A stretch of 64,000 nt of DNA, taken from contig CAZHOB010000002.1 in the NCBI GenBank assembly GCA_964534465.1, positions 29,725 through 93,724 of the forward strand, given 5' to 3'. Source of the stretch: an uncultured Candidatus Saccharibacteria bacterium (GTDB taxonomy: Bacteria > Patescibacteriota > Minisyncoccia > Phycocordibacterales > UBA2100). The stretch's first letter is position 1; the number at the start of each line of letters is the position of its first letter. The position numbers were made by a program. Below are positions 33,001 through 51,000 of the stretch, in pieces.

Positions 33001-36000
33001 GCCGGGATCGCGCTGACGGTAGATACATCCGCACTCACCGCGATCGGCAATGATTACGGTTTTGAAAAGATTTTCAGTCGACAGGTGGAGGCGCTCGGTG
33101 GAATTGGCGATGTGCTCGTCGCATTCTCAACAAGCGGAAAGTCGCCGAATGTTCTCTCTGCCATATCAGCTGCACGAAAAAATAAAATGCGCGTCATAGC
33201 GCTCACAGGAGAAAAGGGTGTCTCTATGCGAAAAATTGCCGACATCGCTATCGTTGTCCCGGCGGGCGAAACCGCACGCATCCAGGAAGTGCATGAGATC
33301 GTCTACCACGCATGGTGCGAAGCCGTGGACGCAGCCCTATTCAATGTATGAGCGGTGATATCATCCATGCTTGCAAGGATTTGGAGCTCTGTTGTGCTAA
33401 GTTTAAGGACAATGAAGGGATCTAATACAGGTACAGCTTTGAAGCAGATCAGGCATGTGGCAGAGATCGCGTGGCATGCCTATGCTCCTTACAGGGGGCA
33501 CATACTGCTCCTGACCGTTTTGAGCTTCATCGGGGGCATCATCGAGGGTGTCGGGATCAATGCCGTGATCCCTCTTCTCTCCCTCGTGCTTGGCATTCAG
33601 AACGCGGCGACAGACACGATCTCCCGCTTACTTAAAATTCTTTTTGCACTGCTCCACATTCCTTTTTTCCCTCGATATTTGCTCGCGCTCATCGTCGCAC
33701 TTTTCTTGTTGAAAGCAGTGGTGTCATTTTGTATTAGCTATGTGCAGATCCGTATCACTTCCGAATATGATCGGTCGATCCGGTCCAGGCTATTCAGTAA
33801 GGTGCTGCGCTCCTCATGGCCGTATTTACTTACGCAAAAGCTCGGCAATATCGAATCGATCCTAATGATCGATGCTCCCATGACGACGAGTTTGCTCGTA
33901 AAAATCAGCGCAATGATAACGCTCGTATCCAATGTCATAATGTATTTCGGTGTAGCACTTTCAATTTCTCCGGTCGTCACGGGAGCCACCTTCTTGGTCG
34001 GCGGTATCACATTTTTGGTAATGCGCCCAGTCGCGTGGCGGGTGCATCACTTCTCAAAAGAGCGCGCGGAATCATACGGTGAAACGCTCCACCATGTATC
34101 AGAGCATGTGAGCGGTCTGAAGAATGTGAAAGCGTTCAATGTGGAAATGCCTGCGATCGAACGGGGAAATCAGTATTTCAATTCAATAACGAGGCTCGGT
34201 ATTCGGATCCAACTGTTACAGCAGATCGCAGCCCAGGTCATACCGCCCGTCGGAGTGATCTACATTGCCGTCATTCTCACTCTCGCATTCAAAACACCCT
34301 TTATCACCCTCGCTGCGCTGCCCGCGATCCTCTATCTCATTTACAGGATCTTTTCCTATGTGCAGCAAATGCAGGTCAACATGCATTCGATGGTTGAATA
34401 TATCCCCCACCTTGAGCGTGCCGTTCAATTTGAGATCAGTACATCTAGTACGCAGGAAAAAACGACCGGCACGCGGCCATTCGCTTTTCAGCGGGAACTT
34501 ACCTTTAATGACGTATCATTCCAGTACGGAACCGGAAAAAAAGTTCTCGATCGCGTCTCATTCTCGATAGCGAAAGGCAGCATGGTCGGGATAGTCGGGC
34601 CTTCCGGCGCAGGCAAAACGACCTGCGTCGATATGATCTTGCGATTGCTGGAGCCGACGGGCGGCGCGATACTGCTCGATGGTGTGCCAAGTACGGAGAC
34701 CTCACTGTCGCAATGGCGCAAAAACATCTCGTATGTATCGCAAGATTTTTTCCTGATACATGGAACGATCAGGGAAAACATTTGCTTTTATGACGAAAGT
34801 ATTACAGATGATGATATTTGGCTCGCGGCAAAACAGGCGCATATCGATGAATTCATTAGCTCATGTCCAGACGGGCTCGATACAGAAGTAGGCGACCGCG
34901 GCGTCAGGCTCTCTGCGGGCCAGCGCCAAAGGATCACGATCGCCCGCGCACTTGCGCGAAAGCCAAAGATCCTTATTTTCGACGAGGCCACAAGCTCGCT
35001 CGACAATGAATCGGAAGCCCATATTAAAGGCGTCATCGACGAACTGAAAGGCAAGGTCACTATTATCGCAATAGCGCATCGACTATCTACGATCTTGCAC
35101 TCCGATCAGCTCATAGTTTTGCAAGAGGGCCGTGTCGTTGAAACTGGGTCGCCCCACAATCTTTTGAGCGATACGAGTTCCTACTTTTACAAAGTCTATA
35201 CGATCAGTCAGTGACGATGTATGAAAATAATGCTTCTGATAAGCGGGAATGAGCAAGTTTCAAAAATCCTGCTTGATGAGATCAAGCAAGCGGGACACGA
35301 GGTCATCTATTGGGTGGCAGATCACAGCATCTCACACCTCACTCCGCAGAGTGCCATATTCCATGATCACTACGACGCATGGGACAGCAAAGGGGCGACT
35401 CATTTTCAAGGCGAGCAGATCCCCCCGGCTTCCGCGGATCTCATTGCGTCGTTTTCCTACATCGAACCGCTGCTCCTCACGATGATGAACAAGCGATACG
35501 ATTCAGCGACAGTCGATGAGCGCAGGCATATCTACTTTACTATGCTGGCATACTGGACCTTTGTCTTTGACAGCCTTGAGATAGACCGTGTCGTTCACGC
35601 ATCCATTCCACACAATGTATACACCAATATAATCTATGAGATCTGCTTGAAGAGAGGGATCCCTTCACTCTGCTTTGAAGAGTCATGGGTAGCGTGCCGA
35701 CTTCTCCCGTTCACGGAAAACTTCTGGCAGGGAAACAGTGAGTTGCGCGCGGCATTGAAGCGGCTTGAAGGAAAAAAAATTACACCCGATGACCTCGGGG
35801 AAGAGCTTCAAGACTATTGGAGAGAGCAGCAGCGCGCGCTGACACCGCCGCCGTACTTGGTGCACCAGAGCCCGCTTGCGGGACGGAGACTCTTCGTGCA
35901 TTACGGTCGGATAGGGATGAGGTCTTTGCAAAAAGGTACACTATTTGTACTCGCCGTGCAGTTCGTGCGCCGCTTCTTCGAGAAAAATCTGAAGGATGAA

Positions 36001-48000: not shown

Positions 48001-51000
48001 CACTTTTTCCCGCTCGTTGTTCCGGGCGGACTGGTCGTCTTCGACGACTACGGTCAACGAGGTCACGGAGAATCAGACGCAGTCCATGAGTTTTTCAAAG
48101 GAACCAACTACAAGCTCCATATGCCTCAAATGGCACCAACGACATCGGCTTATATTGTGAAAGAAGGTCTGTAATTGATACGTGTCGCTCAGGGCTGATA
48201 CCTCGGCAATTGAGCAAGGAATTTCTTTTTTAAAAAACGCCTGTATAGTTGCCACTATGAGTGCAAAGTCGAAACTCGTGCTCGGCACGGCGCAGCTCGG
48301 ATCTAGCTATGGTATCGGCAACACGACCGGCCAGCCGTCGCGCGATGAGGCGTTCAAGATATTGGACAGGGCATACGATGGCGGTATCAATACGCTCGAC
48401 ACGGCGACTGCATACGGGAATTCAGAAGAGGTGATAGGTGTGTGGCTTTCTTCGCGAGACCGCGCAGATGTAGCCATTATCACGAAATTAAAGCCCAATC
48501 TTCTCGATGAGTACCCCGAATCGCCAATTATGGTCATTGAAAAAGAGCTCCACGGCTCATTATCGCGCCTGCAGCTGGACGCAGTTGACGGATATTTACT
48601 CCACGGGGCAAAGGATATGTATAAAGAGGGCGTGATGGAGGGCCTGCGAAATATAAAAGCTAAAGGCCTTGTAAGAAATATCGGTGTTTCTATATATGAC
48701 GAGGAAGATGCTCTTCATGCACTCGACCTCGGGATCGATTATATTCAGATCCCATACAACGCGCTCGATCAGCGTTTGGAGCAAACGGACTTTTTCAGTC
48801 GGGCAAAAAAAGCTGGCCTTACTGTGTTCGCGCGCAGTCCCTTACTGCAGGGTTTGCTGCTGATGACGCCGGAGAGCATACCCGCGCATCTCGAGCATGC
48901 GAAGGGGCACGTAGCTCGCTTCCAAGCGATAGCGCAGAGGTACGGCCTCAGTCCGTATGAAGCATCTCTCATATTCGTGCATCAGCAGCCGCATATCGAG
49001 CACATCGTATTTGGCGTCGAAACGCTTCCGCAGCTCGAGGATATCTTTCGAGTCGCAAAAATGGCCGAGGAAGGTTCGCCTGAGGATTTTTTGCAGGAAA
49101 TATCACAGGCATTCAAAAATGTGGACCGTGCAGTTGTAAATCCGAGTTTGTGGAACAAAAAAAAGATCTGAGACGCCTCGCCGCCGTAGTTATTATTCCG
49201 GGAAAGCGGCTTTTGTGAGACGTTGACGTCATCTTTTCGTATCGTTACTATCACCTTATGTTGACTGCAATTATCCAGGCTCGAGTAGCTTCCACGAGAC
49301 TCCCCGGAAAAGTGCTCAAAGAAGTCCTCGGAAAACCCCTGCTTTATTACCTTCTCGAGCGGCTTAAGAGGGTCAAGGGCATCGACCAAATAGTCGTCGC
49401 CACGACCACCAATGTGGCAGACGATACAATAGCGGCGTTTTGCAAAGATATTGATGTGCCGGTATATCGGGGCTCGGAAAACGATGTGCTTGCAAGATAT
49501 GCGGGAGCAGCAAAGGAATTCGGTGCCGATCCCGTAATGCGGCTTACGGGCGATTGCCCGCTATTGCCCGTGGAAGTGGTCGAAAGGGTCATTGCCGAAT
49601 TCAAGAGCGGCACATTTGATTATGTAGTTACGGGTCCGAGTTTTGTCGAAGGCTTTGATTGTGAGATCTTTTCGTCAAAAATGCTTGAGCTCTCGAATAA
49701 AAATGCGACAAAGCCATCCGAGCGCGAACATATAACACTCTATATGAGCGCCCACCCGGAGATCTGTAAAAAGCATGTGATAGAAAATACGCAGAATGAT
49801 GGTGGGTATCGCGTGACAGTGGATGAGCCGGTGGACTTTATCGTCGTAAAGGCGATCCTTGAGGAGTTGTATCCTAAAAATCCCGCATTTACCGGAGAGG
49901 ACGTGAAGCGATTCCTCGACGAGAATCCTGATATCAGAGCCATCAATAAAGATGTGGTGAGGAACGAAGGTCTCATCAGATCACTGAATGCGGAATCGTG
50001 ATATGAATCTCGAGAGGTAAGAGAACCGAAGGAAAATGGGTACCATGAATCGCACTGAGCGACTCCCTTGCGAAATTATTGTATGATTTGGTCATGTCTA
50101 AATTGTGGCTCTTTGTTGCAAAAAACGGCACCATCACATGAAAAAGGCGGTGATCATAACAGGCGTTTCTTCCGGACTCGGGCGGGCGATTTTTGACGCG
50201 CTTTTCGAGAAGGATATCCATATTTTTGCGATTTCCCGCAGATTTACTGCTGAACAATTTGAGTTGCAAAATGGACGCAAGAACATCACGCTCATCACGT
50301 GCGATCTGAGTCAGAACGAACAGGTGATGCAGTGCGCCGACACACTTATGAAGACACTACTGGATTTCAAGGAAGTCGCGTACATTAACAACGCATTTAC
50401 GATCGATCCGATCGGGTCGATAGGTGAGATTTCCGCCGATCAGATCCGCGATGCGATCCAGACCAATTCTACGAGCGCCATTGTTCTCATTAATGCGGTT
50501 TGCGCACTCAAAAAAGCCTCATCGCTCACCTTCATAGATATAACGAGCGGCGCAGCGAAGACGCCGATCGAGGGTTGGGCTGTGTACTGCGCTTCGAAAG
50601 CGATGATGAAAATGTTTTTTAGCGTACTCGCAAAACAGTCGAAGACGGATCCAAGAATTTCCGTCCACGAATTCGAGCCGGGCGTGATCGACACGAATAT
50701 GCAAAAAAAGATCCGCAGCGCGCAGTTTCCTTCCGTTCGGGTATTCAATATCCTCAAAGAGTCGGGCAAACTCCGTGATCCGCACGAAGTTGCGCAGGAA
50801 TTGATACAAAAATATCTTGGTGTATGAAGATCGCGATCCTCTCCGACATACACGGCAATTCAATAGCACTCAAGGTCGTTCTGAAGGAGATACACGGCAT
50901 GCACATAGAACACATCTTTGTGCTCGGCGACTTTGTCGGGTACTACTACCATCCGGATGAAGTCCTCGAAGCACTTTCGCATTTCAAGAAGACATTTGTC

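Follow-up and report, generated by a model that had tools for sequence, protein, structure and literature searches.

Nonulosonic acids are major surface determinants of pathogens, and only a small number of enzymes that attach them have been described. A stretch of 64,000 nucleotides from an uncultured Candidatus Saccharibacteria bacterium (contig CAZHOB010000002.1 of assembly GCA_964534465.1; hereafter the window) carries genes for the synthesis of such a sugar, an ATP-binding cassette (ABC) exporter and two paralogous genes whose products we call CapA and CapB (Table 1). An initial annotation, made from the sequence alone, had placed both products in the Capsule_synth family (PF05159), to which the 3-deoxy-D-manno-oct-2-ulosonate (Kdo) transferases KpsC and KpsS belong, and had proposed that they transfer a nonulosonic acid activated with cytidine monophosphate (CMP). 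Which sugar does this locus make, and do CapA and CapB attach it? We conclude that these genes form the nonulosonic-acid section of an island for surface glycans that spans at least 64 kb, and we favor, with moderate confidence, the reading of CapA and CapB as putative CMP-nonulosonate transferases that act before ABC export. Pfam was run on all genes of the window, and NCBIfam in addition on the genes for the sugar module, for the exporter and for a heptose pathway; only two gaps in the gene map, of 612 and 394 bp, were left unassigned. Every open reading frame (ORF) named in the initial annotation was recovered from the ORF list in its place and with the Pfam domains attributed to it.

CapA exceeds the 20-bit gathering cut-off of PF05159, whereas CapB, taken alone, falls below it; in both proteins the Pfam match spans only profile positions ~147–273 of 310. 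A precomputed domain check of 240 listed relatives found PF05159 in most of them. CapA and CapB are 32% identical over the C-terminal 183 residues (BLASTP, E = 8e-27), and profiles built on alignments of 30 relatives of each protein (A1 for CapA, A2 for CapB) align with each other across 448 columns with E = 3e-43 (hhalign). Judged by these comparisons, the two are full-length paralogues, related beyond the motifs that they share. The description of the pair as two Capsule_synth paralogues stands, with the correction that CapB does not reach the Pfam threshold on its own.

Single-sequence searches of the PDB matched both proteins to KpsC structures (E ~1e-4), to which they are 12–16% identical. 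With the family profiles, KpsC was found at E = 9.5e-9 (A1) and 7.5e-11 (A2) and WbbB (GT99) at E ~0.03–0.04; the PDB yielded no other significant match to these profiles, with no epimerase at E < 0.4, no PseG and nothing for KrkA. Alignment by hhalign to a fragment of Escherichia coli KpsC (residues 148–263, assembled from the PDB-match alignment and a peptide quoted in PMC10148158) gave probabilities of 97.8% and 97.1% for the two families. The models predicted for CapA and CapB, which are of high confidence, most resemble KpsC, WbbB and KrkA, all of them retaining Kdo transferases. Fold comparison of the two models gave 13.9 (236) and 16.6 (249) for the C-terminal module of KpsC (6mgd), 13.3 (240) and 16.2 (258) for its N-terminal module (6mgb), 13.6 (261) and 15.2 (288) for WbbB (5fa0), and 10.5 (239) and 12.8 (257) for KrkA (GT140; 9yfx), compared with 12.2 (180) and 12.7 (184) for the top generic GT-B fold. 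Both models have the two-domain GT-B-like fold closest to KpsC that is looked for in GT107, and neither protein has segments resembling transmembrane helices. By sequence, profile and predicted fold, CapA and CapB are soluble two-domain GT-B-like homologues of the retaining CMP-Kdo transferases. Resemblance to TagF-type glycerophosphotransferases (PF04464), which the initial annotation had held against its own proposal, was not seen: there is no Glyphos_transf match in Pfam and TagF is not the closest fold, and this identity was rejected.

The putative active sites combine a conserved element with an altered one. CapA contains VYFPLHFQPE and CapB AYFPLQHEPE, and YVKEHP and IPNVRL occur in both; the motifs listed previously are therefore all present, except that the spacer in the first comprises three residues (YFPL-x-x-x-PE) instead of two. 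In a HMMER alignment of the CapB family with the C-terminal module of T. dismutans KpsC, 'pLqyePE' falls on 'pgQvesD', and this alignment puts E317 of CapB at the position of the nucleophile, D165. E284 of CapA takes the same position through the A1/A2 alignment and also by a gapless offset to D160 of E. coli KpsC. The spacing agrees, with 34 residues from Asp to His in KpsC and 35 from Glu to His in CapA and CapB. Residues L279, Q282, P283 and E284 are invariant across the 30 members of the CapA family, and L312, P316, E317, K350, H352 and P353 across the 30 of the CapB family. Among 376 full-length relatives, 316 have P-[D/E] followed 33–37 residues later, usually 35, by HP (Glu in 315, Asp in 1), and 298 have KEHP. 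The position corresponding to the Gln of QXXXD is His in CapA and Gln in CapB, and H, N, S, G or Q across relatives; the fixed residue two before the Glu is Q in A-type and E in B-type proteins.

For Kdo transferases, two studies describe an HP motif that binds CMP and a QXXXD motif with an absolutely conserved Asp, the covalent nucleophile, and an absolutely conserved Gln that binds the Kdo carboxylate (PMC10148158, PMC12887879). Measured against these, CapA and CapB match the superfamily in predicted fold and in the element that binds CMP but lack a defining feature of GT99, GT107 and GT140. They had been placed in the KpsC/KpsS family but are not ordinary members of it. In comparison with KpsC and KpsS (GT107), the retaining β-Kdo transferases of the group 2 capsule linker, QXXXD has become xXX(Q/E)PE with a variable Gln position, the window is without a Kdo pathway, and the host is not a classical Gram-negative bacterium with a capsule. 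WbbB's N-terminal domain and KrkA both retain the conserved Asp and Gln, unlike CapA and CapB, and sequence similarity to them is marginal or absent. With no Kdo pathway in the window and QXXXD altered, an identity as Kdo transferases was rejected.

The loss of the canonical Asp, together with the position of CapA almost always directly downstream of the exporter gene, would also fit inactive or regulatory partners of the ABC exporter that modulate chain length or export. RkpZ/LpsZ has been described as such a modulator for rhizobial K antigens, and RkpZ, a PF05159 protein, affects K-antigen size. We regard this explanation as highly improbable for the two proteins. Besides the HP motif and the Glu, ~40 further residues spread over both domains are invariant in families at 35–55% identity, which is the pattern of active enzymes, and Glu is a competent nucleophile or acid.

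The backbone genes specify a pseudaminic (Pse) type of sugar. The NeuB-family synthase passes the NCBIfam cut-off for PseI (TIGR03586, 488.9 bits against 340.25) and fails that for NeuB_NnaB (309.6 against 399.65). The DegT aminotransferase passes for PseC (TIGR03588, 461.4 against 423.5) and fails for LegC (229.9 against 420). For the dehydratase, PseB is by far the top-scoring model (TIGR03589, 398.2 against 407.75), with FnlA (228 against 730) and LegB (69 against 475) also below their cut-offs. Because PseI and PseC pass, PseB is ~10 bits short and LegB, LegC and NeuB_NnaB are far below, the sugar backbone is, as far as these profiles tell, pseudaminic-type at the PseB, PseC and PseI steps and not legionaminic. 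A legionaminic-type sugar had been suggested before; the legionaminic/neuraminic pathway was rejected on these scores and on the lack of any Epimerase_2 gene in the window.

The cytidylyltransferase is a less specific match: it scores 28.5 bits against the PseF model (TIGR03584, cut-off 205.7) and 48–64 bits against KdsB models (cut-offs 155–281). No PseF equivalog was found in the window, nor a KdsA or KdsB equivalog, so no Kdo pathway is seen within it. The previous remark that PseG and PseH are not obvious was borne out, since neither a PseG (Glyco_tran_28_C) nor a PseH (small GNAT acetyltransferase) was detected by the scans described above in any gene of the window. The parts list for a CMP-nonulosonate is otherwise as proposed, with dehydratase, synthase, aminotransferase, cytidylyltransferase and methylase all in place; the synthase gene, whose strand had been left unstated, lies on the minus strand. 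Compared with the canonical PseB-PseC-PseH-PseG-PseI-PseF pathway of Campylobacter and Helicobacter, the window has equivalogs of PseC and PseI, a near-cut-off PseB and a CTP_transf_3 enzyme. It differs by lacking equivalogs of PseH, PseG and PseF and by adding a class-III aminotransferase, ATP-grasp ligases, a thiamine pyrophosphate (TPP) enzyme, aldo-keto reductase (AKR) and short-chain dehydrogenase/reductase (SDR) enzymes, a phosphodiesterase, a haloacid dehalogenase (HAD) phosphatase and several methyltransferases. No member of the other known sialyl- or nonulosonate-transferase families was found in the window.

We then consider how widely CapA-like genes keep such company. Both families have hundreds of relatives at 37–83% identity, all unannotated; the named ones all come from metagenome-assembled genomes (MAGs) of Patescibacteria, also called the candidate phyla radiation (CPR; e.g. 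Kaiserbacteria, Parcubacteria, Magasanikbacteria, Giovannonibacteria and Taylorbacteria), and A-type and B-type proteins often come from one assembly. A profile search of 1.84 billion cluster representatives (clusters at 50% identity) returned 9,984 at E ≤ 1e-3 and 2,754 at E ≤ 1e-30. A scan of one genome per species gave 236 loci, with a top identity of 55%, so that the window's genome is not itself among these species representatives. Its relatives and gene order indicate, indirectly, that it is probably a Patescibacteria genome and Kaiserbacteria-like. The best 80 (individual loci carry L-numbers) were examined by comparison with the window proteins (tblastn); 40 of them, each with at least 18 kb of sequence, form a well-covered subset, and neighborhoods were taken as 10 kb. 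All 80 are MAGs, 78 labelled Patescibacteria/CPR or unclassified bacterium and two Gammaproteobacteria.

In 67 of the 80 loci the CapA homologue has an exporter homologue upstream of it on the same strand, in 52 within 500 bp; the median gap is 57 bp, against 6 bp in the window. Nonulosonate genes of some kind are present in 38 of the 40 well-covered loci (NeuB family in 28, CTP_transf_3 in 29, either of these in 34, PseB- or PseC-like genes in 35). The association of the Capsule_synth paralogues with nonulosonate genes is therefore strong over the related loci, in agreement with the initial annotation. Locus L002 repeats the order of the window (GT9, heptose epimerase, SIS, ABC, ..., CapA, ..., Aminotran_3, PseB, AKR, CTP_transf_3), and in L084 relatives of CapB lie beside NeuB and CTP_transf_3 genes. 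In L087, ABC, CTP_transf_3, GFO, NeuB, Epimerase_2, Hexapep, DegT and dehydratase genes precede CapA, which is followed by PseB-like, DegT, formyltransferase, PIG-L, CTP_transf_3 and NeuB genes, with a B-type gene upstream of the exporter; this locus thus holds two nonulosonate modules and two Cap paralogues. A cytidylyltransferase of L087 that adjoins a PseI-like synthase is 38% identical over 239 residues to that of the window. A clear B-type gene lies within 10 kb in at least nine of the 80 loci, and eight (L030, L031, L033, L035, L038, L039, L071 and L072) have tandem A-type pairs 15–100 bp apart. These pairs lie at ~10001–13000 in loci with full 10-kb flanks and are reminiscent of the two GT modules of KpsC.

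The missing PseG raises the question whether CapA, CapB or both instead supply its activity, as a nucleotide-sugar hydrolase (an analogue of PseG, LegG or NeuC) that frees the 6-deoxy-hexosamine from UDP for PseI. The Pfam tables of the sampled related loci likewise contain no PseG-type (Glyco_tran_28_C) gene, and in L002 and L003 the gene directly upstream of the CapA homologue encodes a PseH-like small GNAT. To our knowledge, all three known nonulosonate-pathway hydrolases are GT-B-fold proteins; in Foldseek, the lowest E-values for the CapA and CapB models are to WecB/NeuC 2-epimerases, and CapB alone matches a UDP-GlcNAc 2-epimerase at E = 8e-4. The family profiles, however, find KpsC and WbbB and neither epimerases nor PseG, as given above. 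A dedicated Epimerase_2 gene is present in 18 of the 80 CapA loci, and the one in L087 belongs to a complete Leg-like module adjoining CapA, where therefore no extra hydrolase is needed. The presence of two or three paralogues per island and the tight coupling to the exporter also suit transferases better, and we consider a hydrolase role quite unlikely.

A different donor is the other explanation to be weighed: CapA and CapB could be glycosyl or phosphoglycosyl transferases for a Kdo-like octulosonate, CDP-glycerol, CDP-ribitol or ADP-heptose and mere neighbors of the Pse genes. Besides genes for an ADP-heptose pathway and a GT9 transferase, the island does have two for UDP-sugar dehydrogenases and many for further enzymes that modify sugars, and the altered QXXXD suggests a donor site that is not that of a Kdo enzyme. 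On the other side, KdsA and KdsB equivalogs are missing from the window, the heptose is already served by the GT9 transferase, and in ulosonic-acid transferases it is the HP motif that binds CMP. Moreover, the nonulosonate is the only CMP-sugar with a synthase and a CTP_transf_3 enzyme in the island, yet it has no other candidate transferase, and 38 of the 40 loci carry nonulosonate genes. We judge another donor to be unlikely.

Several observations weigh against the reading of CapA and CapB as CMP-nonulosonate transferases, and two of them also speak for another donor: within 10 kb, six of the 40 well-covered loci contain no NeuB gene and no CTP_transf_3 gene, and the CapA relative of L086 adjoins a TagF-like gene (Glyphos_transf) and a TagD-like cytidylyltransferase gene. 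The window has one NeuB and one CTP_transf_3 gene for two paralogues. The co-occurrence counts stand without a genome-wide background control; NeuB should nevertheless be rare enough in such small genomes to make enrichment by chance unlikely. Finally, GT99, GT107 and GT140 all have an absolutely conserved Asp where CapA and CapB have Glu, and the carboxylate-binding Gln position varies, so that the chemistry of the two proteins may differ from that of the Kdo transferases; the equivalence of this Glu with the Asp rests on one HMMER alignment and the spacing.

Transfer of a nonulosonic acid by PF05159 proteins has precedents. For the Acinetobacter members KpsS1, KpsS2 and Gtr59, transfer of pseudaminic or acinetaminic acid was assigned from gene adjacency in 2014–15, with KpsS2 and Gtr59 assigned by gene context to a Pse derivative and acinetaminic acid, and related genes were noted beside nonulosonate modules in E. 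coli O108 and O165, Photobacterium, Bacteroides and Sphingobium (PMC4487303). KpsS1 of A. baumannii is a retaining CMP-Pse5Ac7Ac transferase that founds GT118, according to the citation of Walklett et al. 2024 in PMC12887879. The activity proposed for CapA and CapB was therefore right in kind, matching both KpsS1 and the gene context, but it is neither novel nor, after the prediction of 2014–15 and the demonstration of 2024, little explored.

As with KpsS1, KpsS2 and Gtr59, the window encodes KpsC/KpsS-related proteins beside a nonulosonate synthesis module, and both paralogues share one island with PseB, PseC, PseI and CTP_transf_3 genes, an adjacency like that of GT118. For KpsS1, however, an identity of 30% to E. 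coli KpsS is reported, whereas CapA and CapB show no more than 12–16% identity to KpsC structures and score 29 and 17 bits against PF05159; they are also longer, of patescibacterial origin and accompanied by an ABCB-type exporter. Among the PDB matches of CapA and CapB, no chain carried the name KpsS1. What differs here is a very divergent pair of families barely at PF05159, the Glu in place of Asp, the regular pairing with an ABCB-type exporter and, as sampled, the confinement to Patescibacteria. A more far-reaching proposal, that CapA and CapB found two new GT families related to GT99, GT107, GT118 and GT140 but separate from them, use a Glu nucleophile for nonulosonate transfer and make up, together with an MsbA/PglK-like exporter dedicated to them, a system conserved throughout Patescibacteria for lipid-linked surface glycans that contain nonulosonate, analogous in function to the KpsS/KpsC poly-Kdo anchor, is one that we put forward tentatively and hold to be possible but doubtful.

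The exporter scores highest against the NCBIfam models HepA (337 bits), MsbA (326) and PglK (220), all below cut-off, and its PDB matches are ABCB4 and ABCB1. The class of MsbA-, HepA- and PglK-like ABCB-type transporters flips lipid-linked glycans or glycolipids. This MsbA/PglK-type half-transporter sets the window apart from group 2 capsule systems, whose exporter is the two-component KpsM/KpsT transporter.

For the donor, acceptor, mechanism, division of labor between the paralogues and final sugar, we infer the following scheme. The PseH (N-acetylation), PseG (UDP release) and PseF steps would be carried out by non-orthologous enzymes. The extra aminotransferase, the two ATP-grasp enzymes, the TPP enzyme, the reductases and the methyltransferases would tailor the sugar to a modified Pse derivative, which the CTP_transf_3 enzyme would then activate to the CMP-sugar. 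CapA and CapB would each take this CMP-nonulosonate as donor and, probably by double displacement via a Glu-linked intermediate, add the sugar to a glycan that is held on a lipid at the membrane's cytoplasmic face. The remaining glycan would be built by the island's GT4 and GT9 transferases, and the MsbA/PglK-like exporter would move the finished glycolipid outward. The two paralogues may serve two acceptors or linkages, like KpsS and the two KpsC modules. For the PseG step one may speculate about a two-step substitute, either the YfcE-type phosphodiesterase with the HAD phosphatase or a NUDIX protein (21118–21762); no counterparts of the phosphodiesterase and phosphatase were found in the 80 related loci by tblastn.

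The locus points to a large uncharacterized branch of the retaining ulosonic-acid transferase superfamily, one whose catalytic motif is altered. It further suggests that in many Patescibacteria a sizeable part of the reportedly small genome is given over to a nonulosonate-bearing, ABC-exported glycan; the literature searched held no report linking Patescibacteria or CPR to pseudaminic, nonulosonic or sialic acids. Under the more far-reaching proposal, the exporter with CapA and CapB would also be a candidate for determining how these ultra-small episymbionts appear to their hosts. Nonulosonate transfer by Capsule_synth proteins being already established, the gain is in breadth and mechanistic variation and not in a new principle. 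CapA and CapB are soluble, which makes recombinant testing feasible although the organisms are uncultured.

Table 1 Features of the nonulosonate locus and its surroundings (positions in the window)
Feature	Position	Strand	Evidence
ABCB-type (type IV) half-transporter exporter, MsbA/HepA/PglK-like	33355–35214	+	ABC_membrane and ABC_tran
CapA, soluble GT-B-like protein, 481 aa, candidate CMP-nonulosonate transferase	35221–36666	+	PF05159 29.4 bits
CapA P278-L-H-F-Q-P-E284, counterpart of QXXXD, E284 at nucleophile position	36052–36072	+	alignment register
CapA K317-E-H-P320, HP (CMP phosphate-binding) motif	36169–36180	+	invariant in family; aligned to KpsC VKVHP
Class-III (GSA-aminomutase-like) aminotransferase	36731–38053	+	Aminotran_3 138 bits; below all NCBIfam cut-offs
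PseB-like UDP-GlcNAc 4,6-dehydratase (inverting)	38109–39098	+	Polysacc_synt_2 300.7 bits
PseI, pseudaminic acid synthase, NeuB family with SAF	39128–40174	-	NeuB 296 bits, SAF 50.5 bits
S-adenosylmethionine (SAM) methyltransferase	40305–41003	+	Pfam
ATP-grasp ligase	41093–42130	+	Pfam
Acetolactate-synthase-like TPP enzyme	42123–43733	+	Pfam
HAD phosphatase	43730–44401	+	Pfam
Fusion of CBS domain and SDR sugar epimerase/dehydratase, 513 aa	44412–45953	-	Epimerase 168 bits, CBS 39.7 bits
PseC, UDP-4-amino-4,6-dideoxy-N-acetyl-β-L-altrosamine transaminase	46348–47487	+	DegT 384.6 bits
TylF-type O-methyltransferase	47518–48174	+	Pfam
AKR	48182–49171	+	Pfam
CTP_transf_3 cytidylyltransferase, candidate CMP-nonulosonate synthetase	49258–50001	+	PF02348 103.8 bits
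Further tailoring genes: SDR, YfcE-type phosphodiesterase, second ATP-grasp, SAM methyltransferase, FemAB/GNAT-like	50105–54391	+	Pfam, NCBIfam
CapB, GT-B-like paralogue, 500 aa, second candidate CMP-nonulosonate transferase	57932–59434	+	PF05159 17.1 bits
CapB P311-L-Q-H-E-P-E317	58862–58882	+	E317 aligned to nucleophile Asp165 of T. dismutans KpsC-C
CapB K350-E-H-P353, HP motif	58979–58990	+	aligned to KpsC VKVHP
Two GT4 glycosyltransferases	59441–61554	+	directly 3' of CapB: 6-bp gap, then 4-bp overlap

The tailoring genes are interspersed with the Pse genes and include at least five methyltransferase genes; NCBIfam gave no equivalog-level or specific function for any of the tailoring enzymes. 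The Aminotran_3 gene is a companion of the PseB-like gene, present in 19 of the 40 well-covered loci, and a homologue of the AKR adjoins nonulosonate genes in L001 and L002. The methyltransferase ORF at 52185–53396 (+) overlaps the ATP-grasp gene at 51521–52471 by 287 nt and its domain begins at about residue 170, so that its true start is probably an internal codon near 52470. The FemAB-like protein (53393–54391, +) weakly matches TIGR04421 (FemAB_IMCC1989) and has homologues encoded directly after CapA in L085 and L086. A pyridoxal phosphate (PLP) enzyme (56175–57128, +) passes the cut-off of TIGR04422 (PLP_IMCC1989; 83.7 bits against 75), and both models are named for one organism, IMCC1989. 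Its gene and the adjacent ORF at 55172–56164 (+), which overlaps the end of a minus-strand methyltransferase gene (54395–55246) by 75 bp, each cover the DegT profile only in part, which would fit a single gene, split or decayed, as well as two PLP proteins that have diverged. The segment 54001–58000, which covers the genes just upstream of CapB, has a GC content of 0.45–0.47, compared with 0.50–0.55 elsewhere in the window, and may be a more recent acquisition.

The whole window (1–64000) forms one glycan island, with about ten GT4 genes, GT9, GT-C (PMT_2), GtrA and UbiA genes, two UDP-sugar dehydrogenase genes and many epimerase and methyltransferase genes; the UbiA protein resembles decaprenyl-phosphate phosphoribosyltransferase. 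Patescibacteria genomes are reportedly ~1 Mb in size, and a 64-kb glycan island is an unusually large share of such a coding capacity. An ADP-heptose-type pathway is encoded at 22655–23425 (-), 29026–29505 (-), 30512–31768 (+), 31765–32649 (+) and 32773–33351 (+), comprising a GmhA-like isomerase (207.7 bits, cut-off 209.45), a kinase like domain I and an adenylyltransferase like domain II of HldE, an HldD-like epimerase and a GT9 heptosyltransferase; the order GT9, epimerase, SIS, kinase, ABC recurs in L002. An organism of this kind is expected to be without lipopolysaccharide. A transketolase split into separate N- and C-terminal genes and a zinc alcohol dehydrogenase gene adjoin the heptose kinase gene (23427–25068 and 25065–26093, both -) and may supply sedoheptulose-7-phosphate or a modified sugar.

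Two proteins of the island, of 410 residues (10413–11645, +) and 351 residues (18775–19830, +), have no Pfam or NCBIfam match. The former has one N-terminal hydrophobic segment; the latter contains about six and is perhaps a membrane protein of the polymerase, ligase or flippase type. Unusual domain combinations occur in the window and in related loci. A 948-residue fusion (6954–9800, -) joins the N- and C-terminal domains of a NodU/CmcH-type carbamoyltransferase to a SAM methyltransferase domain, and a 651-residue ORF (1564–3519, +) with partial UDP-glucose/GDP-mannose dehydrogenase domains and a GT4 domain is either an unusual fusion or a mis-joined ORF. Upstream of the CapA homologues in L002 (6561–9456) and L003 (1447–3964) lie genes for a HisH-like amidotransferase, an unannotated protein of ~375–390 residues and a HisF-like cyclase, a trio that presumably resembles acetamidino-sugar systems. 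In L001, from a Parcubacteria genome, an 800-residue protein (13442–15844) combines a UDP-galactopyranose-mutase-like FAD domain with a NeuB and SAF synthase, and in L084 NeuB and SAF are fused to an AP_endonuc_2 (xylose-isomerase-like) domain.

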